From: Opitutia bacterium
GTDB taxonomy: Bacteria > Verrucomicrobiota > Verrucomicrobiia > Opitutales > T3Sed10-336
Reading direction: 5' to 3'
Assembly (NCBI GenBank): GCA_003558065.1
Contig: PWMU01000050.1
Location: forward strand, 11,656-75,655
DNA length: 64,000 nucleotides
Shown here: piece after piece, positions 6,928-63,772 of the stretch
Layout: each line of letters starts with the position of its first letter
How positions within the stretch are numbered: position 1 is the stretch's first letter
Notes under the pieces: model-generated
The model's database searches: none
The model's input: the letters and a program-made list of their open reading frames with translations, nothing else
What the model was told of the DNA's origin: nothing
Program-made: the position numbers and the translations under genes

Positions 6928-7301
6928 GATGACAGTTCGGTTGTCGTTAGTGTGAAGGCCGGGGCACCCGCGAATCGCTGCTTCGGGTGTTCCATGTTCA
7001 GGGTAATTCCCCAGATTGCAAACGCGTTCTGGGAAAAGGTAAAAGGGGATGACCGGGATCGGGGAGGGGAGAGAAGGTCGGTGGGCGTCACGGTCTTTTC
7101 ATTTGCAAGCTTTGATCCGCTTTTTTTAACCAAAAATCTCGAATTTCAAATTTACGATCTGAAATGCTTTTTCATGCGGCCTTCAGAGGACAAATGAAAA
7201 AGCCGTGCGGTGGGCGTCTGTTTTGGCGCTTTATCGTTGCTATTTTCCGGATCCGGTACAAAATCGGCTCTGTCATAAACTTGGCAAGAAAGGAGTATCC
7301 C

Positions 7302-8672: not shown

Positions 8673-8817
8673 GCGAACGGAATGTGCCGGATCGCTTTGT
8701 CGCAGTTTCTGTGGGAGCGGCTTCATCCCGCGATCCAATGTGAACGAAGATACAGCTGGGACCCGGAGCATTTTTCGGCGACCGTCAGGCCCGGCTGTGC
8801 TTCGGCAGCCTGCTTGT

Positions 8818-18267: not shown

Positions 18268-19026
18268 TCAAAACTTCAGCAGCACACTGGTGACGAAGTA
18301 GTCGAGAAGGAGGATGAGGATCAGCGAGATTACGACCGCACGGGTCACCGAGCTTCCGATCTCCCGCGGGCCGCCTACGGTTTGCAGACCGACGTTGCAG
18401 CAAACCAGGATGGTGACGAAGCCGAAAATCTCGGCTTTGATCAAACCGTCGAGAATATCGCGGAAAGTGACGAAGTTCTTGATTCCCTGGAAGTAGATGC
18501 GGGTATCGAGCTGAATGAAGTCGACATTTTGCGCGACAACGGCGCCCCCGATCCAGCCGATGAGGTTGGCGATGATGGTGAGTATCGGCATCATGATCAG
18601 TATCGCAATCAGGCGAGGCATCACCAGGATGCGCTCCGGAGGAATGTTCATGGTCACCAGCGCGTCCACCTCCTGGTAAACCTTCATGGTGGCGAGTTCC
18701 GCTGAGATCGCCGAGCCGACACGTCCCGCCACGAGAATCGCGGTCATCACCGGAGCGAGCTCCCGGGCCAGCGAGAGGCCGACCAGGGAGCCGATGAAGT
18801 CCTGGGCGGCGACCGGGGCGAGGCTGTAGCCGGCCTGAAGCGCGAGCACGCCGCCGATAAAGAAACTCAGGATGGCGACGATGGGAAGAGTGGTGTAGCC
18901 GATCAGGTAGCATTGCTCGACCAAACGGTACCATTGTCGCGGGAGACAGGGGAGATAGGAGAAGGCGCGAAGGGCGAGTATGATCGTGCTGCCAAAGTCC
19001 TCCAGGATTTTATTGATCTGTTTCAT
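18268..19026 (-). CDS. mlaE: ABC transporter permease, MlaE-like
   Basis: 252 aa and polytopic. LARELAPVMTAILVAGRVGSAISAELATMKVYQEVDAL is the conserved MlaE core. Confidence 0.85.
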   Translation of the reverse strand: MKQINKILEDFGSTIILALRAFSYLPCLPRQWYRLVEQCYLIGYTTLPIVAILSFFIGGVLALQAGYSLAPVAAQDFIGSLVGLSLARELAPVMTAILVAGRVGSAISAELATMKVYQEVDALVTMNIPPERILVMPRLIAILIMMPILTIIANLIGWIGGAVVAQNVDFIQLDTRIYFQGIKNFVTFRDILDGLIKAEIFGFVTILVCCNVGLQTVGGPREIGSSVTRAVVISLILILLLDYFVTSVLLKF

Positions 19027-20519
19027 TCCGGGTCCGTTTCGTCGTCGTGATCATCGTCATCCTCATCATCGTCACCGAAAAAATTCATCCATAATAGTCT
19101 CAGGCCCTCCTCCTGATGGTAGCCGAGCAGCCCTTTCAACAGCTCGGCGCCCCGGTTCTCGTCCTCCTTTTCGACCGTGAGCAGAGGGCCGAGGTTGAGG
19201 CGGTAATCATCCGCCCGTCTTTGCCAGGTCAGCAACTTAAAAAGTAAAGAGTGGCGGGAACGTTCCTCGGTTTCGTCGATGTCCCTTTGATAGAGAGCGA
19301 ACAGCGGGCTGTAATTGTGCCGGACGACCCGGTTGTGCTGGAAGAAGACCTCCAGCGGGCTTATAACCTGGGTTTGCCGCCTCCCGGCGCCGTCGTCCCA
19401 ATGGCTGACAATCGGCCAAAGATGCTGTCTGCGTGCGGGTTTCGCATCCGGACGGGCGGGATCGGACTGGCGAAGGGACCAGTAGAGAAAGTAGAGGAAC
19501 TGGGTTCTATCCTCAATCAGGCCGCGATTGGCCGTTTTCTCGTTGCGGTAAAACGGCCACAGGATCCATTGCCGATCGCGGTGGCGCCGGATCGACCGGG
19601 TGTAGAACGGCGCGATACGATTGGTGTACTGGTTCTCGCCCCGCCGCTGGACCACCAGCGGCCAGAAGTAACGGAGCTCGCTGTATTCGGGATCGGTGCT
19701 GTGGGTGTAGCCGAAGAACGGCCAGACAAAAGTCTGGCTCTCCGCGGTCTCCGAACGGGACCGGGTGTAGAAGGGGAGGATGCCGAACGCTTCAAAGGGC
19801 TCGTCTTTCCACAGTTCGCGCCGGACGCTGTAGCTGAAGGGCCAGAGGATGTAGCGACGATCGAACTCGTCTTCAACCCACCGCCGGCCGTAAAAGGGCC
19901 AGAATTCAAACCCGCCGGCGTCCTCGCCCCGGTAGGTCTTGATGAAAGGCCAGGGAGCCAGAGTCAGAATCCGTTCGTTCCTTTCCACCCGTATGTAAAG
20001 AGGAAAGAGGATCCAGCGGAACCGGTCCTGGCCGAACAGGGGCTGGACGTCGCCGTATAACGGCATAATGCCGAATGAAGCATCCCTGGGGCGCGGGCCC
20101 CGGCCGTAAAAAAACAGGGGGGAGAGGCGCAGATTGACGACCGAGTCTTCTCCGCCGGCCTCGCTGGATCGTTGAGTCCGATTGTAGTGGAGGAGCGTGA
20201 GAACGTCCCAGGAGTGGCCCGCGTGGCGGCGCCGGTAATTGAAAAGGGGGTAGAGAACATGGAAATCCCCGCGGTCATACTGGTCGTCGAAAGCGATGTA
20301 GAACGGGCGAACGCCGCTGATCCGTTCGTCGTTGGCTTCGCGGGAAAATATGAGGGGGCCGGCCGCCTGCCAGTGGTCGAAGCCTTCGTCCACCTCCTGC
20401 TGTTCGCCTACAAAGGCAGGCCAGAGATTTTTCTCCGGAATCAGTCCTCCAAGGGCGGACGTGGACATGAGCCAAATCACGAAAACGGACAGGACATTTT
20501 GAAGCCGGAGACGCTGCAT
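19023..20519 (-). CDS. Secreted WPF-repeat protein of unknown function, first gene of the mla operon
   Basis: ATG 20519 gives MQRLRLQNVLSVFVIWLMSTSALGG (signal). There are about 15 repeats of hydrophobic-(W/L/S)-P-(F/L)-(F/Y), for example ILWPFSY, FVWPFFG, YFWPLVV, ILWPFYR. Acidic tail FFGDDDEDDDDHDDETDPE. 4-nt overlap with mlaE. Confidence 0.6.
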   Translation of the reverse strand: MQRLRLQNVLSVFVIWLMSTSALGGLIPEKNLWPAFVGEQQEVDEGFDHWQAAGPLIFSREANDERISGVRPFYIAFDDQYDRGDFHVLYPLFNYRRRHAGHSWDVLTLLHYNRTQRSSEAGGEDSVVNLRLSPLFFYGRGPRPRDASFGIMPLYGDVQPLFGQDRFRWILFPLYIRVERNERILTLAPWPFIKTYRGEDAGGFEFWPFYGRRWVEDEFDRRYILWPFSYSVRRELWKDEPFEAFGILPFYTRSRSETAESQTFVWPFFGYTHSTDPEYSELRYFWPLVVQRRGENQYTNRIAPFYTRSIRRHRDRQWILWPFYRNEKTANRGLIEDRTQFLYFLYWSLRQSDPARPDAKPARRQHLWPIVSHWDDGAGRRQTQVISPLEVFFQHNRVVRHNYSPLFALYQRDIDETEERSRHSLLFKLLTWQRRADDYRLNLGPLLTVEKEDENRGAELLKGLLGYHQEEGLRLLWMNFFGDDDEDDDDHDDETDPE

Positions 20520-20714
20520 GGATTGCTGAAGCAATGACAGGATTGCATTGACCCGAGTCAAGCAAACGGAAAAGTTGGGATGATTGCGAAAAAAGGGGGC
20601 TTTGGCCAGCCATTTTAACGGGTGTAAGCGGCTGGCGCTCAAAAGCCGGCCGCGGGAAACTCGGGAGGAAAAACGCGCCGAATGCCTCGTTCGCCTCATC
20701 GGATCCAGAAGAAC

Positions 20715-50764: not shown

Positions 50765-51904
50765 TCAGCGTTTCGCTTCCTCCCGCTCAATAATATCCCA
50801 GGATTTTTCGATATAGAAACGGTAGTTCGCCAGCGGGGTTCCGTTCGGGATGCGGTGGTCGATGCCGAGTATGCAGCCGCCGGTGCGAACCATGGGCGGG
50901 ATCTTGTACTCCAGTTCCGCCGTGATGGCGGCTTGGTCCTTTCGCAGGACGTGCTTGTCGATGCCGCCCTGGAAGGCCAGGCGGGAGCCGTACTGTTCGC
51001 GGAGCTTCACAATGTCGTTGCCCCCGACGGGCTCCACGGGGCCCATCACGTTGAGGCCGGCCTCCAGAAAGCTTGGGATCAGTTTAGTCATGTCGCCGTC
51101 GGAGTCCTGGTAGAAGAGGCGGACCCCCCGGGCGCTCACGAGATCCCAGAGCCGGCGGTAATAGGGCACGATGTAGGCGTCCACCTGCTTCGGGCCGATC
51201 AGGGGACCGTTCTTTCCGGCCATGTCCTCGTGGATGTTGAGCTGGTCCACTGCAACTCGTGAAGTGACTCGGTCGAGGGTCCGGTGAGCGACGTCGCCGA
51301 TCGTTTCCAGCATCTCCCCGATCAGATCGGGCTGGGTGTAGAAGCTGATGCAGAGCTGTTCCTCGCCCATAAGCTGGCGAAGCTCGTCGAATCCGCCCGG
51401 AATCTTCGCCACAACGACCTTGCCCTCCTCGCGGGCGCGTTGGGCCGCAGCCTCCCAGCCTTCTTCGAATCGCTCTTCGGAAAAGGCATAGTGTTCCTTT
51501 ACCGCAAGCCAGGTGTCGCGGTCCTTGACCGGGTGATCCATCGGCAGCGGAAGGGTGGAGGCCTTCTTGGACAGCTTCATCTTCCGCCCCATTTTGTCGA
51601 GGGCGATGACGTAGTCCGCGGTTTCCTCAAGGATGGTGGTTTCCGGCCCCCCGATCCAGCCGGTGTGGACCGGGACCGAGGCCAGGATCGGGCTGCGGAA
51701 ACGAAACGCGGAAAAGTCCAGTTCCTCGGGGGTTGCGCCCTGTTGCGCCCATTCCTCCCGAAGGCCGGCAAGGGGGCCGAAGACTTCGGTAAAGAGCGTC
51801 CGCTGATTCCGGCGGAAGGTCATGTAATCGAGGTACTCCTCGCGCCGCACTCCCATGGTGCGTTTGATGGCCAGGGCGGCATGGGTTTCGCGAATGTCGT
51901 TCAT
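50765..51904 (-). CDS. Uroporphyrinogen-decarboxylase-family methyltransferase (MtaA/CmuA-like)
   Basis: 379 aa. The C-terminal GGCILGIDHRIPNGTP resembles the URO-D family GHGI motif. 4-nt overlap with the upstream activase gene. It is the last gene of the corrinoid operon. Confidence 0.6.
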   Translation of the reverse strand: MNDIRETHAALAIKRTMGVRREEYLDYMTFRRNQRTLFTEVFGPLAGLREEWAQQGATPEELDFSAFRFRSPILASVPVHTGWIGGPETTILEETADYVIALDKMGRKMKLSKKASTLPLPMDHPVKDRDTWLAVKEHYAFSEERFEEGWEAAAQRAREEGKVVVAKIPGGFDELRQLMGEEQLCISFYTQPDLIGEMLETIGDVAHRTLDRVTSRVAVDQLNIHEDMAGKNGPLIGPKQVDAYIVPYYRRLWDLVSARGVRLFYQDSDGDMTKLIPSFLEAGLNVMGPVEPVGGNDIVKLREQYGSRLAFQGGIDKHVLRKDQAAITAELEYKIPPMVRTGGCILGIDHRIPNGTPLANYRFYIEKSWDIIEREEAKR

Positions 51905-53466
51905 AGTTTTTCTGCTTTCTCGGGGGGTGATGCCCGCGAGGTTGCCGGTTTGCCCGGGAAGGTCATTTCTTCAACGAAAGTGTCCTGGAATCCCGGGTCC
52001 TGGCTGAGGGAGACGTGGACCACGCGTTTGCGAAGCGATTCGCAGGCCGATTCCGGATTTTCGGCGAAAAGGGAGATCTTGGCTCCCAGGAGAGCCGTGT
52101 TTCCCGAGGGGCGAAGCGCCTTGTCCGGGAAAGGCAGCAGCCCGATACGCAGGGCGCTGTCGAGACGAAGATAGTTGCCGAAGGCGCCCGCCATGAAGAC
52201 GTCGGTCAGGTTACGGGGGCGGATGTCGTTGGCGCGCATCAGGATCTTTGCCCCGGCCGCGATGGCGCCTTTGGCGAGCTGCAACTCGCGAATATCGCAC
52301 TGGTGGAGTTGCACGGGCGAAGAGAGAACCCAATTCTTTCCGCCGTGGGCGAAGCGGCCGTTGGGCAGAATCATGCCGAGATCGAGCCCCGCCGCCACCG
52401 CGTCCACCAGCCCGCTGCCGCAGATGCCGCGCGGGTCGACATCCCCGATCACACGGCAGCGCCAGGACTTCGCGCAGGGAACAACCTCCGCAATCGCGCC
52501 GGTGGACGCCCGCATTCCCATGGTGATGCGGGCCCCCTCGAAGGCGGGTCCCGCCGCTGTGGAGGCGCACACCATGCGGGAGCGATTGCCCACCACGACT
52601 TCGCCGTTTGTGCCGAGATCGAGAAAGACACCGGGCTTTTCGCGCCGGTCGAAACCCACCGCCAGCAGCCCCGCAAGGATGTCGCTGCCGACGAATCCTC
52701 CTATACACGGGAGAAAAACGACCGGGCAGCCGGCGGGGAGGCCGTTCCATCCCAGCCTTCCGGCGTCGAATCGCAGGGTGCCGGTGGCCTGCGTCTCGAA
52801 GGGGTAGCGCGAGAGCGGTTCCGTGTTGAGGCCGCCGAACAGGTGATGCATGGCGGTGTTTCCAACAAGGATCATCCGGTTGACGCGTTCCGCCTTTTCG
52901 GGGCCGGCTGCGGCAAGCAGATCCCTGACGAGTTCCGCAAGCTGTTTTCGGATGAGATTGGTGAGCGTGGTTCGGCCCTCAAATGTCATTGAGAATTCGA
53001 TACGACTCATAAGATCCGCGCCGAATCTGGCCTGGCGGTTGAGACCGCTTCGAACCGCGAGTACGTTGCCGTTTTCGAGGTCGACCAATTGGGCCACGAG
53101 GGTGGTGGTGCCGACATCGACCGCGATGCCGCATCCCGGGCGGGGAGAAAAAATGAAGTCGGTGTTGTCTCCCAGGACGGCGGCTTCCCATTGAGCCAGC
53201 TCGAGGGTCAGGTCGCTCTCGGCCCGGTGCCGGCAGGAGAGGCGCCAGCCGGCATTGACCCGGGAGTCGCCCAGGAGCCGGCGCTCCCCGGGGAACGCCG
53301 GCAGCCGTCCCTCCAGGACCCGGACACGGCAGCCTTTGCAGCGTCCCCGTCCGCCGCAGGGAAACTCGACGCCCTCCGCAAAAAGGGCATTGGCAAGCGG
53401 CGTGCCGGCGGGAACCGGAATGGTCTTGTCCAGTGGACGGAGCCGAATCAGAACGGAATTCTCCAT
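51901..53466 (-). CDS. Corrinoid reductive-activation enzyme (2Fe-2S ferredoxin domain + ASKHA/DUF4445 ATPase; RamA/RACE-like)
   Basis: ATG 53466 gives MENSVLIRLRPLDKTIPVPAGTPLANALFAEGVEFPCGGRGRCKGCRV (plant-type ferredoxin). GIAVDVGTTT...DLGTNGE are actin-fold phosphate motifs. Confidence 0.7.
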   Translation of the reverse strand: MENSVLIRLRPLDKTIPVPAGTPLANALFAEGVEFPCGGRGRCKGCRVRVLEGRLPAFPGERRLLGDSRVNAGWRLSCRHRAESDLTLELAQWEAAVLGDNTDFIFSPRPGCGIAVDVGTTTLVAQLVDLENGNVLAVRSGLNRQARFGADLMSRIEFSMTFEGRTTLTNLIRKQLAELVRDLLAAAGPEKAERVNRMILVGNTAMHHLFGGLNTEPLSRYPFETQATGTLRFDAGRLGWNGLPAGCPVVFLPCIGGFVGSDILAGLLAVGFDRREKPGVFLDLGTNGEVVVGNRSRMVCASTAAGPAFEGARITMGMRASTGAIAEVVPCAKSWRCRVIGDVDPRGICGSGLVDAVAAGLDLGMILPNGRFAHGGKNWVLSSPVQLHQCDIRELQLAKGAIAAGAKILMRANDIRPRNLTDVFMAGAFGNYLRLDSALRIGLLPFPDKALRPSGNTALLGAKISLFAENPESACESLRKRVVHVSLSQDPGFQDTFVEEMTFPGKPATSRASPPEKAEKL

Positions 53467-53492
53467 AGGGCTTAAGCTGCGGGACTCCTTTC

Positions 53493-54869
53493 TCAGGTGA
53501 GGCCGTATTCTTCCGGTAGATACGCGTTCGCGGGTATTTCTCCGGCCATGGCTTCGCGCATTTCGGCTTCGGTTTCGGGCAACTCGGTGACGGCGGATTC
53601 CATGCGTCCCAGCCACCGGGCCTCCCGGGGGGTCAGGTTCAGTGCCGCTTTCCGGTGCGCCCGGTCAAGGATCCGCCAGCCCGCACGGGCCGCGCGGATC
53701 GTTCGTTCGTAGGTTGTGGCTCCCGTCAGGATCTCCTCCGAAATTTCCAGGACGATGTCGGGCCGCAGCACGTAGGCCTGCGGGTCGAGAGAAGCATCGG
53801 ACGAGGCCAGCCAATCGCGCAGCGAGCGCGCGGCCTCCGGGGAGTCGTCCAAGGCGGCGTTGGCCAGCCGGCAATCATAGGCGAGCTGTTCCATGGATAC
53901 CACCGGTGCGTAACCGCTGAGCAGCCGAACATTGGCTACGGATTCGTTCGACCAGCAGTCGCAGACAGCTTGCGCGATGTTGCCGAGCGGGCTGGAGTGC
54001 GCGCAGGCGGACGAGCGGCCTTCCATCGAAATGGGAACCCCGGCGATGGCCTTCAGGAAGGGGCCTTCGTAGGCGCAGTCCTTGCTCGGCCCGCGGGCCC
54101 CCGTTTCAAAGGCGACCAGGCTTCGGGGAACGGAAATCACCCGTACCAATGCGGCGAATACCTTCGGGATCATCCCTTTCCACGCGAGCGTCATGGCCGT
54201 ATTGGCAAAGCCGCACGCCGTGTCCCCTGAAGGCACGACGTCCGTATTCCGGCAGCTCCGGACGATCTGTTCCCAGAGAAAGCCCATGTCGCGCGCGCCG
54301 AGAACCCCCAGGGCGAAAACGACGCGGCGGAGGTCCGCATTGACCAGGGCGTCATCACAGACCTCCTTGCCGCCCGTCGATTCAATGGCCAGAAGATCGG
54401 CGCCCGCCCGCCCGGCGCCGTCGAAGAAACGCACCATTTGCTCCCAGTGCTCGCCCCGGCGCATGAGCGGCGGCCGCCGGAATTCACGGGTGTCGTTGGG
54501 AGTGACCCGCAACGCCGTGGCGAGGCCGTGCCGATCGCTGAAGGCGGCGCAGTTCTCGGCGAGGATCCGGGTGATTTCCAGCCCCCATTCCGGAGTCTGC
54601 GTCATCGGCGGAAGCGTTTCGAACTCGACCACCACCGCGGGAACTTCCAGTTCGACCGCGTGGCGCAAAACGCCCCGGACCATCTCCTCGTACTGCCGCC
54701 GGATTTCATCCCAGTTGCGCCGGGTGACCTCGATTCCGGGCAGAGTGAAGTTGATTTCCGGAATCATGCGCCCCCCGCCGATTTCCACGCCTCGGCCGCA
54801 GGTGACCGGATGCGGTGCCCGTCCGAAGAGGAACGCGTCCAGCGATTCGACTGCCGGCTTGGTATTCAT
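53493..54869 (-). CDS. mtaB: Methanol:corrinoid methyltransferase MtaB-family protein
   Basis: It is colinear with my memory of Methanosarcina MtaB: IPEINF, IESTGGKEV, SGDTACGFANTAM, ISVPRSLVAFETGARGPSKDCAYE, MEGRSSACAHS, CDCWSNESV, LAYDCRLAN, DPQAYVL. ATG 54869. Confidence 0.75.
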   Translation of the reverse strand: MNTKPAVESLDAFLFGRAPHPVTCGRGVEIGGGRMIPEINFTLPGIEVTRRNWDEIRRQYEEMVRGVLRHAVELEVPAVVVEFETLPPMTQTPEWGLEITRILAENCAAFSDRHGLATALRVTPNDTREFRRPPLMRRGEHWEQMVRFFDGAGRAGADLLAIESTGGKEVCDDALVNADLRRVVFALGVLGARDMGFLWEQIVRSCRNTDVVPSGDTACGFANTAMTLAWKGMIPKVFAALVRVISVPRSLVAFETGARGPSKDCAYEGPFLKAIAGVPISMEGRSSACAHSSPLGNIAQAVCDCWSNESVANVRLLSGYAPVVSMEQLAYDCRLANAALDDSPEAARSLRDWLASSDASLDPQAYVLRPDIVLEISEEILTGATTYERTIRAARAGWRILDRAHRKAALNLTPREARWLGRMESAVTELPETEAEMREAMAGEIPANAYLPEEYGLT

Positions 54870-54891
54870 TGACCCGGGTGCGGGCGGATCG

Positions 54892-55527
54892 CTACGAGGC
54901 GACCAGTTTCCGGGCGATGCCGACCGCCGTGGCGGCACTGTCTCCGTAGGAATCGGCGCCGATTTCTTCGGCGTATTCGCGGGTGATCGGCGCGCCGCCG
55001 ATCATAATCTTCACGTTGCCGCGCACACCGGCTTCGTTGAGGGCCTCGATGGTGTTCTTCATTGACGGCATCGTCGTGGTCAGGAGAGCGGACATCGCCA
55101 CGATATCCGCCGATTCGTCCCGAATGGCTTCGATGAATTTCTCCGCTGAGACGTCGACACCGAGGTCGATGACTTCGAATCCCCCGCCTTCAAGCATGGC
55201 CGCGACCAGGTTCTTGCCGATGTCGTGAAGGTCGCCCTTGACGGTTCCGAGTACGACGCGTCCCTTCGGTTTTACCCCGGACGCCGTTAACAGGGGCCGG
55301 ATCTTCCCCAGGGCGCCCTTCATGGCGCGTGCGGCGATGAGCAACTCGGGCACGAAGAAATCGTTGGCTTCAAAGCGGCGCCCAACCTCGTCCATCGCCG
55401 GGATCATGTAGTCGTTAACCAGTGTTTGCGGATCCGTGCCCGCAGCCAGGGCTTCGTCCGTGACCGACCGGGCGGTATCGGCGTCGCCGTTCAGGACGGC
55501 GTCGTAAAGTTTGGTCCATTCGCTCAT
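54892..55527 (-). CDS. mtaC: Corrinoid (B12-binding) protein, MtaC/MtbC-like
   Basis: AAGGAG then ATG 55527. B12-binding-2 cap domain, then GTVKGDLHDIGKNLV (DxHxxG), ...MSALLTTTM..., GGAP. Confidence 0.85.
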   Translation of the reverse strand: MSEWTKLYDAVLNGDADTARSVTDEALAAGTDPQTLVNDYMIPAMDEVGRRFEANDFFVPELLIAARAMKGALGKIRPLLTASGVKPKGRVVLGTVKGDLHDIGKNLVAAMLEGGGFEVIDLGVDVSAEKFIEAIRDESADIVAMSALLTTTMPSMKNTIEALNEAGVRGNVKIMIGGAPITREYAEEIGADSYGDSAATAVGIARKLVAS

Positions 55528-55830
55528 TGAGTTATCTCCTTTTTCTCCAGTGGTGGACGCGGGACGTGACAGGACTCCAACTCTACCGGGTCCGGCGCCG
55601 GGGGTCTGCGCGAGGATTGTCAACGAAAGCGCAGATGTTGTCCGGCGTGCCGGTAGCTCTGAAATATACTTCCCTGCATCAAGTTTTCGGATTCTCCTGC
55701 CGCCCGTCTTCTAATTCATTCCCCTCTTGAGAGGGGGGACCAGCCGCAAGGCTGGTGGGGCGTGTCCGTTGCGCCGGCGATACCCATCGTTCCATCGATC
55801 TACTCGCTATATTCGAGTACCAGTCGTTCC

Positions 55831-55861
55831 GGGAGTTTGTCGGGCTTCGCCGACAGGCTGC
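55831..55861. repeat. Short hairpin repeat, copy 2, abutting the stop codon of the HTTM gene
   Basis: gggagtttgtcgggcttcgccgacaggctgc. Stem CTGTCGG/CCGACAG with a GCTTCG loop. Confidence 0.55.
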
Positions 55862-56862
55862 TAGTGATCCGGCAGAGCGGCGGATTCGGGTTGGTTTTCC
55901 CGGGGAGGGCCGGTCTGCGGAATTCCTGTTTCGGCGTAGAGGGTTGAGGAGAACGAGGTCCAGTCCTGTTTGAAGGCGAAGCTTCGCTGCAGGCCCAGGT
56001 AGGCATTTGATTGGTCGACCACGCCGGAACGATCAGATTGGTCGAGCACACCGAAATGATCATTGATGTTGGCCGCGAGCATCAGGCAGAGGGCGAAACC
56101 GGCAAAGACGTGGCGGCAACGTTCGGCGCGTATGAAGGCGCGTGTGGGGAGTTCGTGGGATGGCGGGGGAGCGTAAAGGATTTCCGGGGCGATTCTTGAG
56201 TTGATGCGGAGTTTTCGTTCCCGTATCCGTTTCCTAATGTCGCTCACCTGCTTCCAGAACCGGGGCGGCAGGAGGGCGGCCAGCCCGGCCAGAACCGCCG
56301 CCGGCAGGAGACCGGGCTGAAAATTCAGGGCCTGGCCCGCCTGATACAGGGCGAAGGAAAAGAGGAGCAGGAACAGCTGGATCGAGAGTCCCGCGGTTGC
56401 GGGCGAGCAGTAAAGACTGCTGTCGTCCCGGGTGCGCACGCGCAGACGCAGGTCGAGCGACCAGCGTGCGCCCAGGGGGAGGAGCCATCCCCAAAACAGG
56501 AGAAGGAGCAAAAGCCGGTCCCCGGCGGTCAGGACCAGCCCGTTCTGCCAATTGAGGGAAACGAGAAGAATCCAGGAAACAAAGGCTGCCGTCCGGGTTC
56601 GCCAGCCGAAAATCAACAGTACGGCGAAAACCGCGGCCAGCCCCATCAGCGTCGTGCCGAGGAATCCGGAATCGTTCAGAATCGACAGTTGAAAATGCCA
56701 CGGCGAAACGGTCTGGACGGTTCCATCAATCACCGTACCCCTGTTGACAACCCGAAGCCCGCTCAGGCGAGCCAGCAGATCAGCCAGAAGAACGGTTCCC
56801 AGCAGAACACGAAAAAGGGCGAGGGATCTGAGATCCAGGCCGAAGACAGGGCGCAGGTTCAT
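55861..56862 (-). CDS. HTTM-domain (vitamin-K-carboxylase-like / SdpB-like) integral membrane protein
   Basis: LDLRSLALFRVLLGTVLLADLL opening typical of HTTM domains, with multiple TM segments. Confidence 0.55.
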   Translation of the reverse strand: MNLRPVFGLDLRSLALFRVLLGTVLLADLLARLSGLRVVNRGTVIDGTVQTVSPWHFQLSILNDSGFLGTTLMGLAAVFAVLLIFGWRTRTAAFVSWILLVSLNWQNGLVLTAGDRLLLLLLFWGWLLPLGARWSLDLRLRVRTRDDSSLYCSPATAGLSIQLFLLLFSFALYQAGQALNFQPGLLPAAVLAGLAALLPPRFWKQVSDIRKRIRERKLRINSRIAPEILYAPPPSHELPTRAFIRAERCRHVFAGFALCLMLAANINDHFGVLDQSDRSGVVDQSNAYLGLQRSFAFKQDWTSFSSTLYAETGIPQTGPPRENQPESAALPDH

Positions 56863-57108: not shown

Positions 57109-58842
57109 TTGCAGGAATGGGGGGAACGGATTATTTTAGAAGCCGTGAGTGGACGACGACAGGAGAGAAACCGGGAGCCCGATAACCGACGCCGCGAGGA
57201 GGGGCCCGCCGACGCGCCGTTGAATCCCGAGGCGCGGCTCGAGCGGATGTCGGCGTTGCAGTTGATCGACCTGGTTTCCGGGCAGATGCGGGGGGCGGAA
57301 GCGGCGCCGCACCGGCCCTTGCGTCACCTCCGCTATCGCGTGCAGGAGCTCGAGGAGATTCGCGAACAGGCACAGGGTGCTTTGGCGGAGCTGAACGAGG
57401 CGGTGGAAAAGTTGCGCGCTCCGGCGTTGAGGCTGGGGACCTTGCTGCGGCGGATCGGCAGGGACCGGGCATTGATCTGCGTCGGCGGGGGTGAGTATGT
57501 CTGCAACCTTGACCCGTCGCTTCCCGAGGCGGTGCTGGAGAGCGGGATGCGGGTGCTCCTCAACGAAGCCTACGCGGTGACCGATTCCTTCGGCCTCGAC
57601 AAGAGCGGGCCGGTGGTCCGGTTGACCGAGGCGCTGTCCGACGGGCGCCTTCGGGTTGGCCAGGAGGCCGGAATATCGGATTCGGTGGTCATTCTCTCGG
57701 ACGCGTTGCGGAAGGAGACCTTGAAACCCGGCATGGAGTTGCGTCTCGACGCCAATCAGCGCGTGGCGGTCGAAATCGTCGCGCCGGCCCGAAAGTTCGA
57801 CCGGTCGCTGTCGACGGTCGAGCCGATTCTCTGGAGTGATATCGGGGGGCAGGATTCGGCGGTTCAGGCGATCCGCGATTCGATCGAGATGCCGATTCTG
57901 CACGCAAGCCTTTTCGAGCGTTTCGAGCACCCGGTACCCAAGGGCTTCCTGTTGTATGGACCGCCGGGATGCGGGAAAACCTTGTTGGGCAAGGCCACGG
58001 CTCATAACCTGCGCCGCCAGATCGAGGCCGAAACCGGCGAGGACCGGCCTGAATATTTCCTCAGCGTCAAGGGCCCCGAGATTCTCAACATGTGGGTCGG
58101 CGAATCGGAACGGCAGGTTCGCGAACTGTTTGGCCAGTGCCGGGAGAAGGCCGAAGAGGGGCACTTGGCGTTTCTCTTCATTGACGAGGCCGAGTCGGTT
58201 CTCGGCACCCGTCACGGGGGTCGCGTCGGGAACGCGATCATTTCGACGCTGGTACCGATGTTCTGTGCGGAGATGGACGGGATGGAAGCGTTGCGCAATG
58301 TCGTGGTGATCCTGGCGTCCAACCGGGCCGACCTCATCGACCCCGCCATCCTCCGTCCCGGCCGGATCGATCGCAAGATTCGCGTCCGTCGCCCGAACCG
58401 CGAGGCGGGCAGGGAAATTTACAGCATTTACCTGAACGAACGGCTTCCCGTGGCGGAAGAGCGCGACCGTCTAATCGAGGCGGTGACCGAAGCCCATTTT
58501 GCGGAGAGCGAGGAAAACCGCTTCCTCGAGGTCGGCTACCGAAGCGGACGCAAGGAATACCTTCACCGCGGCGATCTTGCAAGCGGCGCGATAATCGCCG
58601 CCATCGTGGAGCGGGCCAAGGAGCTGGCGATCAAGCGGAGCGTGCTTACCGGCTCGGAGTCGGGGATTACACGCGAGGATTTGCTGACCGCTTTCGAGCA
58701 CGAGTACCGCGAGAACGAACTTTTCCCCCCGACCGATATTACGGAGGACTGGCTCAAACTCACCGATTTCGATCCGGAGAACGTCGTGCGATTGACCCCT
58801 TACCGCCAGCGTAGCGACAGGGAACGGCAGACCTCGATATGA
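57109..58842 (+). CDS. mpa: Proteasome-associated AAA ATPase (Mpa/ARC homologue)
   Basis: Walker A LLYGPPGCGKTLLGKA, Walker B AFLFIDEAESV, ILRPGRIDRKIRV. N-terminal heptad segment LRYRVQELEEIREQAQGALAELNEAVEKLRAP, then an OB-like region, colinear with my memory of M. tuberculosis Mpa. The track start is TTG 57109. GTG 57145 or ATG 57247 are equally possible. Confidence 0.85.
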   Translation: MQEWGERIILEAVSGRRQERNREPDNRRREEGPADAPLNPEARLERMSALQLIDLVSGQMRGAEAAPHRPLRHLRYRVQELEEIREQAQGALAELNEAVEKLRAPALRLGTLLRRIGRDRALICVGGGEYVCNLDPSLPEAVLESGMRVLLNEAYAVTDSFGLDKSGPVVRLTEALSDGRLRVGQEAGISDSVVILSDALRKETLKPGMELRLDANQRVAVEIVAPARKFDRSLSTVEPILWSDIGGQDSAVQAIRDSIEMPILHASLFERFEHPVPKGFLLYGPPGCGKTLLGKATAHNLRRQIEAETGEDRPEYFLSVKGPEILNMWVGESERQVRELFGQCREKAEEGHLAFLFIDEAESVLGTRHGGRVGNAIISTLVPMFCAEMDGMEALRNVVVILASNRADLIDPAILRPGRIDRKIRVRRPNREAGREIYSIYLNERLPVAEERDRLIEAVTEAHFAESEENRFLEVGYRSGRKEYLHRGDLASGAIIAAIVERAKELAIKRSVLTGSESGITREDLLTAFEHEYRENELFPPTDITEDWLKLTDFDPENVVRLTPYRQRSDRERQTSI

Positions 58843-58912
58843 ACGCTTACAGTTTCGGGACGATTCTCACGGGTCGCCCGACAGAAGCTGGAGGCACGCT
58901 GATGGAGAAAAA

Positions 58913-60448
58913 GTGGAGATACAATTCGGTATAGAAACGGAGTACGGAATCAGCCGGCAGCAGGAGCAACCGATCGACGTGGTGGCCGAGTCCATCGCGC
59001 TGGTCCGGAGCGCCGTTTCGCCGGGCGTGCGCATGTGCTGGGACTACTCAAAGGAGGACCCGCATCTCGATATGCGCGGGTTCCGGGTCCAGGAATTGCG
59101 GCAGGACACCGACGAAACCTTTTATTCGGCCGAGGACGTACGGCGCCAGCTGACTTTCCGCGAGATCAAAAGCGACTTGGTGCTCTCGAACGGAGCCCGT
59201 TTCTACAACGATCATGCCCACCCGGAGTACTGCACCCCGGAATGCACCACGCCGCTTGAGATCCTCCAGCAGGAAGTGGTGGGTGAGCGCATACTGACGG
59301 GATGTGCCCTTGCCCTGCAGGAAAAGACCGGAGTGCCGGTTTTGCTTTATAAAAACAACACCGACTTTTTCGGGCACAGTTACGGCTGCCACGAGAATTA
59401 TTTGATCCCGAGAACCCTCCCTTGGGCGAAGCTCTCCGAGAATATTCTGGCATTCCTGGTTACCCGGCAGCTCTATTGCGGAGCGGGAAAATACGCATGG
59501 GAGGAAGAGGACCGGTTTCTCAAGGGAAGATTCCAGATTTCCCAGAGAAGCGATTTTTTCACAGTGCTCCAAAGTGTGGATACGATGCAGCGGCGGCCGC
59601 TGATCAATACGCGGGACGAACCCCACGCGGACGCCGGACGGTTTCGGCGTTTTCATGTTATCCTGGGCGACTCCAACCTCTCTCCGTACGCGGCCTACTT
59701 GAAGATTGGAGTGACCGCGCTGGTTCTGCAGGCTCTGTGCCGCGCCGGACCGGGAGCGCGGGTGCCGCGACTGGACAAACCGATCGATGCGGTGAAAGCG
59801 ATCTCTCGCGACACCGCTTTCCGCTGGGAGATCAACCGGGAGGACGGCCGCCCGACAAACGCGATCGAGGTCCAACGGAGTTACCTGATGCTGGTCCGCC
59901 GTTACCTGTTTGAGAGTGACGGCGAGGAATGGCGGCGCGTTACCGATGCCTGGGAGGAGATTCTGAATGATCTTGATGCCGATCCGCTGTCCACCGCGGA
60001 TCGCCTGGACTGGAGCGCCAAGTACCGGCTCATCGAGGACTTTCGCGACCGGGAAGGCGTCGAGTTGGACGATCCCTGGGTGCGGAGCCTCGACCTTGCC
60101 TACCACCGTCTGGATCCGGACGAGGGCCTTTACCTCAACCTGATGGACCAGGGGGCGTTTCGGCTGCCTTATTCCGCCGCAGAGATCTATGAAAAGGGGC
60201 TGGAGCCGCCGGCGAGCACCCGTGCGGCGGTACGGGGGCTTTGCGTGAAGAAGTTCGGCCCCCGGATTTATGAAACGCAGTGGGAGCACCTGGGGTTCCA
60301 GGGTGAAACCACCGGCCGCTTCATTCTCGATCTGCGCGACCTGTTTGCTCCGGGGGATATCGCGAAAGCGATTCGGTTTATTGAGGGCACCGAACGGGTC
60401 GACGATTTGAGAGCGCTTCCGTTTGCAAAAGAGCGAAATCGCGGTTAA
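58913..60448 (+). CDS. dop: Dop-like Pup-ligase-family enzyme (deamidase/depupylase homologue)
   Basis: GTG start, VEIQFGIETEYG. The insertion RMCWDYSKEDPHLDMRGFRV matches the Dop-specific loop (Mtb Dop RTRWDYEVESPLRDARGF, from memory). HAHPEYCTPEC, YKNNTD..GHSYGCHENY, FQISQRSDF, INTRDEPHAD. Confidence 0.85.
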   Translation: MEIQFGIETEYGISRQQEQPIDVVAESIALVRSAVSPGVRMCWDYSKEDPHLDMRGFRVQELRQDTDETFYSAEDVRRQLTFREIKSDLVLSNGARFYNDHAHPEYCTPECTTPLEILQQEVVGERILTGCALALQEKTGVPVLLYKNNTDFFGHSYGCHENYLIPRTLPWAKLSENILAFLVTRQLYCGAGKYAWEEEDRFLKGRFQISQRSDFFTVLQSVDTMQRRPLINTRDEPHADAGRFRRFHVILGDSNLSPYAAYLKIGVTALVLQALCRAGPGARVPRLDKPIDAVKAISRDTAFRWEINREDGRPTNAIEVQRSYLMLVRRYLFESDGEEWRRVTDAWEEILNDLDADPLSTADRLDWSAKYRLIEDFRDREGVELDDPWVRSLDLAYHRLDPDEGLYLNLMDQGAFRLPYSAAEIYEKGLEPPASTRAAVRGLCVKKFGPRIYETQWEHLGFQGETTGRFILDLRDLFAPGDIAKAIRFIEGTERVDDLRALPFAKERNRG

Positions 60449-60457
60449 ATTTTCTTT

Positions 60458-60637
60458 ATGGCTGATCCAACCAGACGAGTAAAACCAACCGCCCCCTCGC
60501 CGGGCGGGGGAGGAGACGACGGAGGCGGTCCTTCTTCCCCGAAAGTCAACAAGCCAAAAACGGAGGAGCTTCTCAAGAAGATGCGCAAGGTCGATCCTGA
60601 CCAGTCCCGCCGCTACCGGCAACGGACCGGGGAGTGA
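60458..60637 (+). CDS. ubact: Pup-like small protein modifier, UBact type (59 aa)
   Basis: Not in the ORF track (<60 aa). ATG 60458 lies 9 nt after the dop stop, and the TGA is at 60635..60637. MADPTRRVKPTAPSPGGGGDDGGGPSSPKVNKPKTEELLKKMRKVDPDQSRRYRQRTGE has a Gly/Pro-rich disordered N-terminal half, a basic helical C-terminal half and a terminal Gly-Glu. It occupies the exact pup position between dop and prcB. Confidence 0.8.
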   Translation: MADPTRRVKPTAPSPGGGGDDGGGPSSPKVNKPKTEELLKKMRKVDPDQSRRYRQRTGE

Positions 60638-60830
60638 CCGGCAGGTGATCCCGCCGCTTTCCCGCCTTGCGTTTTGCTCCCCTAACGGGGATGTTGCCCG
60701 TTGCGGGTCTGCGGGTGCGGGTTTCAGACGCCGGAATCCTTATTCTCTCCCACACCTGCGAAACCCGGCCCTCAACCCTTGCCCGTCCTCGACACCCTGA
60801 AACCAGAAACCTGACGCCCGCGCATCCGCC

Positions 60831-61592
60831 ATGAACGGAGACTTCCTCTCCCTCCTCTCATCGAATCCGTTTTCCGGCCTTACGGTCGGCGAAAACTGTC
60901 CCCAGTTGCTCGAGGCGACCACGGTGTTCGCCTTCCATTTTTCCGAGGGCGTGGTCATGGCGGGCGACCATCGCGCGACCGCTGGGAACGTGGTGTTTTC
61001 CGATCGAACGGAGAAGATAATCGAGCTGGACAATCAGTCTCTGATCGCCATCGCGGGATCGCCGGCGGTGGCTTTCGAGATGGCACGAACGCTGCAAACG
61101 ACTTTCGAGTTCTACCGGCGAAGCCAACTGCAGGTACTCAGCCTCCCGGCCAAAGTCCGGGCGTTGTCGCGTCTCCTCCGCGACAACCTCCCGGGAACGC
61201 TCCAGGGGGTGGGCGCGGTTGCGCCGCTCTTTGCGGGGAGGGAGCCGGACGGCGATTCACCGCCGGGCATTTACTACTACGATCCGCTGGGCGCGCAGTT
61301 CGAGGCCGCCGGTTACGCGGCTTCCGGGTCCGGGTCCGGCAGTATTCGCAGCGTTCTTCACTACTTGACCCAATGGGGGAATCCGCGACCGGAGAAAAGG
61401 GATCGCGGCGAGGCGATCAACCTGGCCAACCGGCTCCTGCTGACCGCCGCCCAGTTCGATACCGCCACCGGCGGGGTCGATCCGTCCCGGCAGGTTTTCG
61501 CCACCATCCGGCTCCTCACCGCCGACGGCATTCATACGGTGACCGAGAAAGAGCAGGCGGCGGCCTGGAAGAAGGGAGGGGCCAATGATTGA
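60831..61592 (+). CDS. prcB: Proteasome beta subunit (PrcB) with a 29-aa propeptide
   Basis: ...QLLEA|TTVFAFHFSEGVVMAGDHRATAGNVVFSDRTEKII. Numbering from the first Thr (codon at 60918..60920) gives Thr1, Asp17 and Lys33, the canonical Ntn-hydrolase triad. SGSGS is present further on. Confidence 0.85.
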   Translation: MNGDFLSLLSSNPFSGLTVGENCPQLLEATTVFAFHFSEGVVMAGDHRATAGNVVFSDRTEKIIELDNQSLIAIAGSPAVAFEMARTLQTTFEFYRRSQLQVLSLPAKVRALSRLLRDNLPGTLQGVGAVAPLFAGREPDGDSPPGIYYYDPLGAQFEAAGYAASGSGSGSIRSVLHYLTQWGNPRPEKRDRGEAINLANRLLLTAAQFDTATGGVDPSRQVFATIRLLTADGIHTVTEKEQAAAWKKGGAND

Positions 61593-62310
61593 AGAACCGT
61601 ACCGGTGGCTCGAAGCGGTGGCCAACCGTCGCGAGTACATCCAGGACCAGCTCAGCGGTGCCACGCCGGTATTCGCCGTTTCCCGTCCCGAAGGGGTTTT
61701 CCTGCTCGGTGCGGGCCCCGGACGGTCGAAAGTGTTCGAGATCTACAACCGTCACGGCATGGCCGCCCTCGGCAATCCGGTCGATATCGAGAAGCTGCGC
61801 CAGGCAGTCATTGAAACCGCTCACCTCGAGGGGTTTAACCGGTCGGCGGACGATGTGACCCTGCGGCGCCTGGTCGGGTTTTCCATAAGTAATTCCCTCA
61901 AGAGCGCGTTCGAACAGATCGTCGCCGCGCCGCTCATTGTCGAGGCCCTCTTTGCCGAATGCGGGGCGACCCGCGAGGAGGACCTTCTCGTGCGGGTCCG
62001 CTTCGACGGGAGGCCGGAATACGCGACGGACGGTGTCTGCCTCGCATTTCCCGACCGTGATCGCGAGCGCGCCGCCGGCGAGTGGTTGCGGGGCCGATTG
62101 AGCGACTCGGACGGCCTCGGCCGGGTACGCGGGCTTTGCCTCACGGCCTGGTCGGCCCTGGTGGACGGCAAGGAGGATTTCGAAGCATTGAAGGTTCAGG
62201 AACCCCTTCCTTCCTCGCTCGCGAAACACGGCCTGGAAAGTGCCCTGATCGACCGGGCGAGCCCGGGGCCGGCCCAGTACCGGTCGCTTGCCGAAGGGGA
62301 GTTTCAGTAG
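61585..62310 (+). CDS. prcA: Proteasome alpha subunit (PrcA)
   Basis: 8-nt overlap with prcB. 241 aa with no N-terminal Thr. PVFAVSRPEGVFLLG...KVFEIYNRHGMAALGNPVDIEKLRQ is consistent with bacterial alpha subunits. The call rests mostly on position and weak similarity. Confidence 0.7.
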   Translation: MIEEPYRWLEAVANRREYIQDQLSGATPVFAVSRPEGVFLLGAGPGRSKVFEIYNRHGMAALGNPVDIEKLRQAVIETAHLEGFNRSADDVTLRRLVGFSISNSLKSAFEQIVAAPLIVEALFAECGATREEDLLVRVRFDGRPEYATDGVCLAFPDRDRERAAGEWLRGRLSDSDGLGRVRGLCLTAWSALVDGKEDFEALKVQEPLPSSLAKHGLESALIDRASPGPAQYRSLAEGEFQ

Positions 62311-62362
62311 GGCGTCCCGGGCTTGCGAGGCAGGTCCGGGCGCGCATAATCCGGGAGCGGGC

Positions 62363-63772
62363 ATGAATCACGGAAACGGCAATGGAAAGCGGGTGATCGG
62401 CCTGGAAACCGAATACGGTTGTCTTGCCGACCGCGACCTCGACCTGAGTCAGGTTTTGACCGAGGTTCGGAACTGGGTGTTCGAAGGCGGGCGCTTCGGG
62501 ATGATCGACCTGTATGAGCGCGAATGGGATGAGCCGGCGGGAAACGGGGGGTTTCTGTTCAACGGCGGGAGGCTCTACATCGACATGGGCCACATCGAGT
62601 ACTGCACGCCCGAATGTCTGAACGCCCGCGACGCCGTGCGTTACGACCGGGCGGGGGACCGGTTGCTGCAGACGGCAGTCCGGGCGCTGGGCTACGAAGG
62701 GCGGGTATTCTTCATTCGGAACAACATCGATCATCACACCGGCGCTACCTTCGGGTGCCATGAGAACTTCTCGATGGACCGTCTGGCTCCTTTCAGTGAA
62801 GCCAATATTCTTTCACTGCTCGCGTTCCTGACGCTCCGCCTCCTGTACACGGGAGCGGGTCGCGTGGGGGCCGCGGGGGGGCGTTTTTCGGTCGGTTGGC
62901 CCGACCAGGAGCCCGTCTTCGAGGGATTTCAATTGAGCCAGCGGGCGGATTATGTGCAGAACGATTTCTACGAGTGGGTGCAGCACAACCGTGCCATCGT
63001 CAATACGCGGGACGAGCCGCTTGCGGACCCTCTTGCTTACAGACGCCTTCACCTGCTTCACGGCGATACGAATGTCTTTCCGGCTACCACTTTCCTTAAG
63101 CTCGGGACGACCAGGCTGGTTCTTGACCTTCTCGAAGCCGATGCGCTTCCGCCGGTGGTCCTGCAGGATGCGGTGAGCGCTTTGCGCCGGATTTCGCGCC
63201 AGACCGATCCTCCCTGGCGGGTGCGTGACAGCCGTGGGCGGGAACGGGATGTGATTGATCTTCTGGACCGTTACCGGCGCGCGGCCGCCAGGTGCTTTTC
63301 CGGGCGCAATGAGGAAACGGATACGCTTCTGGAATTATGGGGGGACACCCTTGAGGGCCTCGCCCGCGGTGATGCCGGGGAGCTTGCCGGCCGAATCGAC
63401 TGGGTCGGCAAGCGCGAGCTGCTCGATGCTTTTCGCCGCGAGCAGGGGCTGGGTTGGAACGATCCCTGGATGCAGTCCCAGGATCTTGAGTTTCATCACA
63501 TTGATCCCCAGCGCGGACTCGGCTGCGCGTTGGCGGATTGCGACGGATTTTGGGCGACCGGTTGTATTGAAAATGCCATGACAGAGCCGCCCGAGGGATC
63601 AAGGGCCGGGGCCCGGAGCCGTCTGATGCGGGAAATTGAAAAGTCCGGCGGCCGTTATCACCTCGACTGGGACAGGGTCAATTTCCCGGGCGGCCGGACC
63701 TTTTGCATGAAGGATCCCTTCGAGACCCGCGCCGATCACCAGGAGACGTCCGGGTCGACGTCCTTTTCGTAG
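62363..63772 (+). CDS. pafA: PafA-like modifier ligase (Pup-ligase family)
   Basis: KRVIGLETEYG. No Dop-type loop. FLFNGGRLYIDMGHIEYCTPEC, GATFGCHENF, FQLSQRADY, VNTRDEPLAD. The C-terminal FCMKDPF is like Mtb PafA LCKDPF (memory). ATG 62363 is preferred over track start 62288, which overlaps prcA. Confidence 0.85.
   Translation: MNHGNGNGKRVIGLETEYGCLADRDLDLSQVLTEVRNWVFEGGRFGMIDLYEREWDEPAGNGGFLFNGGRLYIDMGHIEYCTPECLNARDAVRYDRAGDRLLQTAVRALGYEGRVFFIRNNIDHHTGATFGCHENFSMDRLAPFSEANILSLLAFLTLRLLYTGAGRVGAAGGRFSVGWPDQEPVFEGFQLSQRADYVQNDFYEWVQHNRAIVNTRDEPLADPLAYRRLHLLHGDTNVFPATTFLKLGTTRLVLDLLEADALPPVVLQDAVSALRRISRQTDPPWRVRDSRGRERDVIDLLDRYRRAAARCFSGRNEETDTLLELWGDTLEGLARGDAGELAGRIDWVGKRELLDAFRREQGLGWNDPWMQSQDLEFHHIDPQRGLGCALADCDGFWATGCIENAMTEPPEGSRAGARSRLMREIEKSGGRYHLDWDRVNFPGGRTFCMKDPFETRADHQETSGSTSFS

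Follow-up and report, generated by a model that had tools for sequence, protein, structure and literature searches.

Does a cluster of Pup-ligase and proteasome genes on a verrucomicrobial contig encode a counterpart of the actinobacterial Pup-proteasome system, and how far can the mechanism of that system be carried over to it? The stretch analyzed here, referred to as the window, comprises 64,000 nucleotides (nt) from an Opitutia bacterium (assembly GCA_003558065.1, contig PWMU01000050.1, positions 11,656 to 75,655), and the cluster occupies 57109-63772 on its + strand. Its six open reading frames (ORFs) are co-directional and all intact, encoding in order a Mpa/ARC-like ATPase, a Dop-like enzyme, a small modifier of the UBact family, the beta and alpha subunits of a 20S proteasome, and a second enzyme of the Pup-ligase family. 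We consider it probable that the locus is an intact UBact-proteasome system, the diderm counterpart of the actinobacterial Pup-proteasome, in a verrucomicrobial chromosome that probably belongs to the order Opitutales. Gene content, architecture, conserved catalytic residues, synteny, and selection are read directly from the compared sequences, and it is these that carry the interpretation.

The cluster was first described in a reading of the DNA made without database searches (the sequence-only reading), which listed six co-directional genes with successive gaps of 70, 9, and 193 nt, an 8-nt overlap, and a gap of 52 nt. The ORF coordinates match this description exactly, and the quoted motifs are found in the translations: GPPGCGKT and FIDEAES in the ATPase, LLEA/TT in the beta subunit, and RQRTGE at the end of the modifier. 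Profile searches with the six products, which that reading had proposed, matched the ATPase, both Pup_ligase proteins, UBact, and the PF00227 beta subunit, while the alpha subunit is recognized through TIGR03691 and its fold.

The UBact Modifier and the Integrity of the Locus

The 59-residue protein passes both curated models of the UBact family, with 79.8 bits against a cut-off of 27.8 for PF20513 (Pfam) and 82.5 bits against a cut-off of 35 for NF033388 (NCBIfam), and NCBI names homologues of it "ubiquitin-like protein UBact [Verrucomicrobia bacterium]". Its N-terminal half is Gly-rich and its C-terminal half (EELLKKMRKVDPDQSRRYRQRTGE) conserved, and it is probably disordered. The C-terminus, ...RYRQRTGE, presents a ligation-ready Glu and fits the family in its length of ~50-60 residues and its R[TS]G[EQ] end. 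The C-terminal pattern LLKRMRKVDP.Q..RYRQR[TS]G[EQ] is nearly invariant in 31 other loci, drawn from at least seven phyla. Since both Glu and Gln endings occur in the sampled loci, the system calls for both a deamidase and a ligase; the window UBact ends in Glu and therefore needs no deamidation before ligation.

The UBact ORF is uncalled in all six public assemblies that represent the organism and its two close relatives (L081-L087), yet it is conserved there under purifying selection. Codon differences between the small ORF and its counterparts in two relatives are 14:2 and 18:3 (synonymous:non-synonymous), which indicates purifying selection on a real gene. The exact 59-residue sequence was not found in a collection of 15 billion proteins. 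Membership in a curated family and retention of the ORF in related loci confirm the earlier proposal that the small ORF is genuine, and the gain in annotation is that a modifier gene missed by public calls completes a verrucomicrobial tagging-and-degradation locus.

As the window comes from a metagenome-assembled genome (MAG), and as the UBact ORF is missing from public gene calls, the locus might instead be a decaying relic, an artefact of assembly or binning, or actinobacterial contamination. This is extremely improbable. The six ORFs are intact, catalytic residues are kept, and purifying selection acts on the small ORF. Contigs from four independent assemblies, three of them NCBI MAG assemblies and one from ENA, are identical to the window, whose G+C is even at ~0.6. 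Two relatives (L085 and L086), with Dop-like proteins 84-86% identical to that of the window, have the same arrangement and share a downstream gene for a FabV-type enoyl reductase. The closest named homologues of the Dop-like protein, the alpha subunit, and UBact belong to MAGs of Opitutales, Opitutaceae, and other Verrucomicrobia; those of the Dop-like protein and the alpha subunit are ~60-63% identical. Genes for MlaD, MlaE, an ABC ATPase, a sulfatase, and another, sulfatase-like enzyme are also present in the window, and these Mla and sulfatase genes fit a diderm, polysaccharide-degrading verrucomicrobium, in line with the Gram-negative setting noted in the sequence-only reading. Contamination and an actinobacterial origin were rejected on G+C, homologues, repeat assemblies, and the Mla genes; the contig is verrucomicrobial, not actinobacterial.

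The 20S Proteasome Subunits and Their ATPase

The beta subunit matches PF00227 (Pfam) with 82.8 bits against a cut-off of 22.4, and TIGR03690 with 146 bits, under the cut-off of 191.9. Its closest solved relatives are the Rhodococcus and Mycobacterium tuberculosis PrcB subunits, aligned from mature residue 1. A propeptide of 29 residues precedes the mature Thr1 (Thr30, codon 60918-60920), with a predicted autocleavage site between Ala29 and Thr30, and Asp17 and Lys33 follow. All three catalytic residues are invariant in an alignment of 56 PrcB sequences that includes the window. The LLEA/TT site and the catalytic spacing given in the sequence-only reading thus stand, but the Ala at position -1, which that reading set against the usual Gly, is not unusual: 17/56 PrcB sequences have it, 11 of the 31 UBact-linked and 6 of the 25 Pup-linked ones (Arthrobacter and Nonomuraea among the latter). 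As a notable propeptide feature it was rejected, being common and found in actinobacteria as well. A separate observation concerns prcB in L086/L087 (7105-7737), for which the public call gives 210 residues only; by alignment, the same start as that of the window (ATGAACGG) lies further upstream. The short call is probably a mis-annotated start site, since it would begin inside the mature beta subunit, downstream of Thr1.

The alpha subunit is far more divergent. A Pfam scan of this product returned no matches, TIGR03691 scores 55.4 bits, under its cut-off of 139, and phmmer aligns only its residues 10-143 with M. tuberculosis PrcA (E 1.7e-7). An AlphaFold2 model built on 25 homologues has a predicted local distance difference test score (pLDDT) of 79 and a predicted template-modeling score (pTM) of 0.82, and its top Foldseek matches are all PrcA of M. 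tuberculosis or Rhodococcus, covering ~230 columns at template-modeling (TM) scores of 0.65-0.77. Since the top fold matches are PrcA only and weak sequence matches accompany them, the product is a 20S alpha subunit.

Besides an N-terminal coiled-coil region and a C-terminal beta-hairpin region, the ATPase has two OB domains and an AAA module. Pfam reports PF17758, PF16450, and PF00004, that is, the AAA domain and both proteasomal-ATPase OB domains, and the NCBIfam model TIGR03689 scores 426 bits, under its cut-off of 504.75. The closest solved relatives are the M. tuberculosis Mpa structures 7ljf and 7px9 (328 bits, residues 62-550), with the alignment running from the coiled coil to the beta-hairpin region. 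The tails set the two kinds of ATPase apart. Nearly all Pup-linked ATPases finish in GQYL or a close variant containing Tyr or Phe, whereas all sampled UBact-linked ATPases finish in a hydrophobic pair [IV][IV] or in x-I; the window ATPase ends ...RERQTSI (58822-58842), an S-I ending in which GQYL is absent. A further idea, that the coiled coil compensates in charge for the basic modifier, was dropped because the 50 residues preceding the OB domain do not differ between the two groups in mean net charge (-0.5 vs -1.2).

Mpa needs GQYL to open the 20S gate (PMC8142254), and in the alpha pocket of M. tuberculosis neither Lys52 nor Arg26 is dispensable, Arg26 forming a hydrogen bond with the GQYL tyrosine (PMC9599533). 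The pocket lysine is conserved, K49 of the window corresponding to K52 of M. tuberculosis and the position being invariant in 45/45 alpha subunits. At the Arg26 position, Arg is found in 18/24 Pup-type and 0/21 UBact-type alpha subunits, and the window has Gly25 (codon 61657-61659). Co-variation therefore extends across the family, with UBact-linked ATPases lacking the GQYL tyrosine and UBact-linked alpha subunits lacking the Arg26 equivalent. As both GQYL and Arg26 are missing, ATPase-20S coupling is not simply transferable from mycobacteria; because loss of the tyrosine goes with that of its Arg partner, the comparison suggests that docking relies on the C-terminal carboxylate and hydrophobic contacts alone.

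The Two Ligase-Family Enzymes

The first enzyme of the Pup-ligase family scores 479 bits with PF03136 (Pup_ligase). Its best NCBIfam family is Dop (TIGR03688), at 416.7 bits against a cut-off of 492.3, followed by PafA (TIGR03686) at 327.4 bits, and it aligns full-length with Acidothermus Dop (4b0r/5lrt, 340 bits), Dop-loop included. The GhExE motif is formed by G6, E8, and E10, and the catalytic residue is Asp100. A conserved Dop-loop (WDYSKEDPHLDMRGF...), a feature of ~40 residues in Dop, contains WDY..EDP..D.RGF; the motif W-D-[YF]..E.P..D.RGF is present in this paralogue and absent from the second. Preference for the Dop model and retention of the Dop-loop bear out its earlier label as Dop-like.

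The second enzyme matches PF03136 with 367.7 bits. TIGR03688 gives 281.5 bits and TIGR03686 gives 269.3 bits (cut-off 551.3), both under the cut-offs. PafA (4b0t, residues 10-455) is the only one with which it aligns over its full length; the alignment with Dop starts at residue 57. G13, E15, and E17 form GhExE, Asp74 is the catalytic residue, and ~45 residues lie between GLETEYG and NGGRLY, with no Dop-loop. Of the columns in an alignment of 112 Dop/PafA-family proteins, 55 reach a conservation of 95% or more, those of GhExE and the catalytic Asp included, and both window paralogues keep all of these except for two conservative substitutions (V for A, S for T), so that the conserved core is kept in both. 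The label PafA-like, given to the second enzyme by the sequence-only reading, holds as regards the missing Dop-loop, the kept core, and the full-length alignment with PafA, but fails as regards the PafA-specific residues, which are missing; on orthology the methods conflict.

The phylogeny of the paralogues illustrates this conflict. Neighbor-joining recovers four supported clades, UBact-linked Dop (bootstrap 97), Pup-linked Dop (95), Pup-linked PafA (100), and UBact-linked ligase (100), and joins them by system (bootstrap 73); distance quartets likewise group the paralogues by system in 65-78% of samples. Sums of profile-profile scores are a near tie, at 1844 by function and 1830 by system. 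The long branch of the UBact ligases can mislead distance methods, and a rooted maximum-likelihood tree placed Dop and PafA of Actinobacteria and Nitrospirae in separate clusters (Hecht et al.). We therefore regard a single ancient Dop/PafA duplication as more likely, with the methods in conflict over an orthology of the UBact ligase to actinobacterial PafA.

The roles of the two enzymes could also differ from those in the Pup system, the enzyme with the Dop-loop acting as the ligase or as a bifunctional enzyme and the second being otherwise employed. The second enzyme does score slightly higher on the Dop model than on the PafA model, has Dop-like spacing by the catalytic Asp with Pro where PafA has Ala, and shares 1/7 of the PafA-diagnostic columns, as does the UBact-ligase clade as a whole; the grouping of distance quartets by system rather than function points the same way, and few changes are enough to turn Dop into a ligase (Hecht et al.). 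We nevertheless regard such an exchange as very unlikely. The first enzyme keeps the Dop-loop motif and 3/7 Dop-diagnostic columns, with no column of the PafA type, while the second is without the Dop-loop, the removal of which favors ligase activity (Hecht et al.). The profile-profile tie gives no support for regrouping, and Gln-ended UBact variants require one deamidase and one ligase.

Distribution and Synteny of UBact Loci

With a Dop-like protein profile, 80 loci were retrieved from GTDB species genomes and annotated with the six window proteins. The UBact ORF is found in 31 of these, most of them in the order ATPase-Dop-UBact-PrcB-PrcA-ligase, so that the small ORF and the gene order are kept in related loci. 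UBact-bearing loci occur in Verrucomicrobia, Nitrospira, Nitrospinaceae, Poribacteria, Armatimonadota, Bipolaricaulia, and Gemmatimonadaceae (at least seven phyla); the Gemmatimonadaceae contig breaks off within prcB. In the protein database, the Dop-like protein forms at least 8000 clusters at 90% identity.

The sequence-only reading gave a purely computational report as the source of the name UBact, and correctly so: the modifier was reportedly named by Lehmann, Udasin, Livneh, and Ciechanover in a computational report of 2017 (BBRC 483:946). A conserved neighborhood of proteasome genes, two PafA paralogues, and genes for Pup-like proteins with a G[EQ] end had been described in 2008 in verrucomicrobia, nitrospirae, and other lineages, as sporadic Pup systems outside the actinobacteria (Iyer, Burroughs, and Aravind, PMC2588565). 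The arrangement is neither rare nor new. Given this description, the later naming, the curated Pfam and NCBIfam models, the NCBI name, and the number of Dop-like clusters, the locus is an ordinary member of a known and widespread system. It has the same gene set, gene order, modifier family, and RYRQRTG[EQ] C-terminus as other UBact-proteasome loci, in a host phylum already reported, and differs from them in nothing of substance. Traits of the window's lineage are the Glu terminus, where the nearest sampled verrucomicrobial loci have Gln, the non-conserved spacer of 193 nt before prcB, and the S-I tail of the ATPase in place of the usual [IV][IV].

A reading that bears on the link between tagging and degradation is that UBact conjugation is mainly non-degradative, a regulatory or protective tag, with the 20S particle largely independent, as in the pupylation of proteasome-less actinobacteria. 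The absence of GQYL and of the Arg26 equivalent would be compatible with such a role, as would loci in which proteasome genes are not nearby: ATPase and Dop-like genes in Chthoniobacterales, and two ligase-family genes with a modifier in Chloroflexota. Pup-PafA neighborhoods without proteasome genes are also known from some lineages (Iyer et al., 2008; PMC2588565). Against this, the modifier gene lies directly between the Dop-like gene and prcB, co-directional with the ATPase gene, here and in most of the sampled UBact loci, which is the strongest genomic signal of functional coupling, and both the alpha pocket lysine and a hydrophobic C-terminal tail of the ATPase are conserved. A mainly non-degradative role is thus improbable, and an intact system of tagging coupled to degradation is preferred.

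Several sampled loci depart from the common arrangement. In thirteen loci of Chthoniobacterales, Udaeobacter, and Limisphaerales (L005-L012, L014, L022, L028, L039, L053), the Dop-like gene mostly adjoins a Mpa-like ATPase gene, and no UBact, prcB, prcA, or second ligase-family gene lies within 7 kb. The Dop-like proteins of these loci group within the UBact-linked Dop clade, and the system may be reduced, or its genes may be scattered over the genome. In Chloroflexota (L043 8416-8733, L044 8509-8733), a third kind of small ORF, ending ...DDLDEEIKRIIREVPDPTPQPGGE and unlike UBact or Pup, follows the Dop-like gene. A ligase-family gene comes after it, that of L043 grouping with UBact-type ligases, and neither locus has proteasome genes within 7 kb.

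Poribacteria have the UBact type in L013, L024, and L027 and the Pup type in L041, L045, L046, L049, and L054; Nitrospira and its relatives have the UBact type in L015-L029 and the Pup type in L048, L050, and L061. The Pup-type loci of these groups encode an acidic modifier and an ATPase tail containing Tyr or Phe, such as GGTYL or GHYL. Since one phylum holds genomes of both types, the distribution points to repeated horizontal transfer or replacement.

Proposed Mechanism

By analogy with the Pup system, from which each of the following biochemical steps is taken, UBact would be conjugated by the enzyme without a Dop-loop. Using ATP, this putative ligase would phosphorylate the gamma-carboxylate of the terminal Glu of UBact and then transfer the modifier onto the epsilon-amine of a substrate lysine. 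The Dop-like enzyme would hydrolyze the isopeptide bond between UBact and lysine and, in relatives with a Gln-ended UBact, would deamidate the modifier too. A hexameric Mpa-like ATPase may capture UBact with its N-terminal coiled coils and thread the tagged protein via the OB ring and the AAA pore into a 20S particle of alpha and beta subunits, where it would be degraded. In the beta subunits, Thr1 would be exposed through autocleavage after Ala29. Docking of the ATPase on the alpha ring probably involves the conserved pocket lysine and the C-terminal carboxylate rather than the contact made by the GQYL tyrosine.

Comparison with Related Systems

The actinobacterial Pup system, as found in M. 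tuberculosis (Mpa/ARC, Dop, Pup, PrcB, PrcA, PafA), resembles the window in gene order and protein families. Both have GhExE and the catalytic Asp in the two ligase-family enzymes, a Dop-loop in the Dop homologue, the beta Thr1/Asp17/Lys33 triad, an ATPase of coiled coil-double OB-AAA architecture, the alpha pocket Lys52, and a modifier ending in G[EQ], which the window UBact provides with its TGE end.

A number of differences weigh against a simple equation of the two. The modifier is basic, with a net charge of +6 in the window and a mean of ~+4.6 for UBact (last 58 residues), in contrast to the strongly acidic Pup (~-13.5). Homology of UBact and Pup is without statistical support: the alignment of the two profiles is collinear at the C-terminus but falls short of significance (hhalign of the UBact profile against a profile of Pup from Pup-type loci, P = 0.017, probability 2.7%), and a Pfam scan of the 59-residue protein at E <= 0.01 reported UBact as the sole family, with no match to the Pup family. 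In place of GQYL the ATPase has a hydrophobic tail; the alpha subunit is without the Arg26 equivalent and has diverged so far that it escapes Pfam. The alpha-loop residues H.WEG.SSA..RS are uniquely conserved in PafA (Hecht et al., 2020); the putative ligase lacks all of them, with ADYVQNDFYEWVQHNRA in their place, lacks the one-residue insertion of PafA after the catalytic Asp (D-MGH vs DVGSH), and belongs to a clade of its own. All five enzyme and proteasome products fall under the actinobacterial NCBIfam equivalog cut-offs. In addition, as the sequence-only reading had stated, the literature searched, with subscription journals mostly outside it, yielded no biochemical, genetic, or proteomic work on UBact.

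These differences could mean that UBact-type systems are a mechanistically distinct sister of the Pup system, marked by tyrosine-free docking, an inverted modifier charge, and a diverged or separately duplicated ligase. The ligase may in that case come from a separate duplication of a Dop-like ancestor, independent of actinobacterial PafA, and the distinguishing traits would characterize the UBact family as a whole rather than this window. We hold this to be doubtful, and the locus is preferably read as the diderm counterpart of the Pup-proteasome. The family-wide differences (no GQYL, no Arg26 equivalent, a basic modifier, and an atypical ligase) nonetheless offer experimental handles, although the window itself is not special. 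As UBact systems are very widespread in environmental Gram-negative phyla, a cultivable carrier could reveal whether tag-directed proteasomal degradation takes place outside Actinobacteria.

The archaeal PAN-20S proteasome and its SAMP modifiers offer a more distant parallel. In archaea, too, a coiled-coil/OB AAA ATPase serves a 20S particle with Thr1, and lysines receive a small protein as a tag. SAMPs, however, are beta-grasp proteins of the ubiquitin fold with E1-like activation, whereas the tag encoded in the window is short, probably disordered, and, by analogy with Pup, would be ligated by an enzyme of the glutamine-synthetase fold. PAN docks by its HbYX tail, which the window ATPase does not have.

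Gene Starts, Spacer, and Neighboring Genes

The features of the locus and of the cluster upstream of it are collected in Table 1. The start of the ATPase gene is uncertain between TTG 57109 and GTG 57145, the latter used in public gene calls and giving 565 residues. The second ligase-family ORF is open from TTG 62288, and public calls begin at ATG 62363. The spacer between the UBact gene and prcB contains a weak terminator-like hairpin at 60719-60739 and may be a transcription-unit boundary or an attenuator. Terminator-like sites are not enriched over shuffled sequence (10 found vs 8.6 expected). A conserved element was sought in the spacer, which does not align between the close relatives L085 and L086, and an Rfam scan of the whole window, spacer included, gave no family at the gathering score.

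Table 1. Coordinates of the UBact-proteasome locus and of the adjacent methyltransferase cluster in the window (aa, amino acids)
Feature	Position	Strand	Remarks
URO-D/MtaA-like methyltransferase	50765-51904	-	
RACo-type reductive activator	51901-53616	-	
MtaB homologue	53493-54938	-	PF12176, 518 bits
B12-binding corrinoid protein	54892-55623	-	
Mpa/ARC-like proteasomal AAA ATPase	57109-58842	+	577 aa from TTG
Dop-like amidase, Pup-ligase family; putative UBact deconjugase/deamidase	58913-60448	+	511 aa
UBact modifier	60458-60637	+	59 aa
UBact-prcB spacer	60638-60830	+	193 nt
20S proteasome beta subunit, PrcB-like	60831-61592	+	253 aa; propeptide 60831-60917
Divergent 20S proteasome alpha subunit, PrcA-like (modeled)	61585-62310	+	241 aa; 8-nt overlap with prcB
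Second Pup-ligase-family enzyme, putative UBact ligase ("PafA-like")	62363-63772	+	469 aa from ATG

Elsewhere in the window, four large ORFs of 544-1330 residues have no Pfam match at E <= 1e-4 (12202-16194 on the + strand; 995-2629, 7152-8894, and 19023-20699 on the - strand). The product of 1330 residues is perhaps the protein called AsmA-like in the sequence-only reading.

Divergently transcribed from the locus, a gene at 55861-56862 (- strand) encodes a hydrophobic protein of 333 residues with no Pfam matches. Its counterpart in L085 has a faint match to the HTTM domain; the corresponding position of L086 lacks it and has type II secretion E and F genes instead. The protein probably lies outside the UBact system.

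Directly upstream of the locus is a methanol:corrinoid methyltransferase cluster (50765-55623, - strand). MtaB and corrinoid protein genes adjoin the UBact locus in L085 too, and the verrucomicrobium may use methanol or methyl compounds anaerobically.

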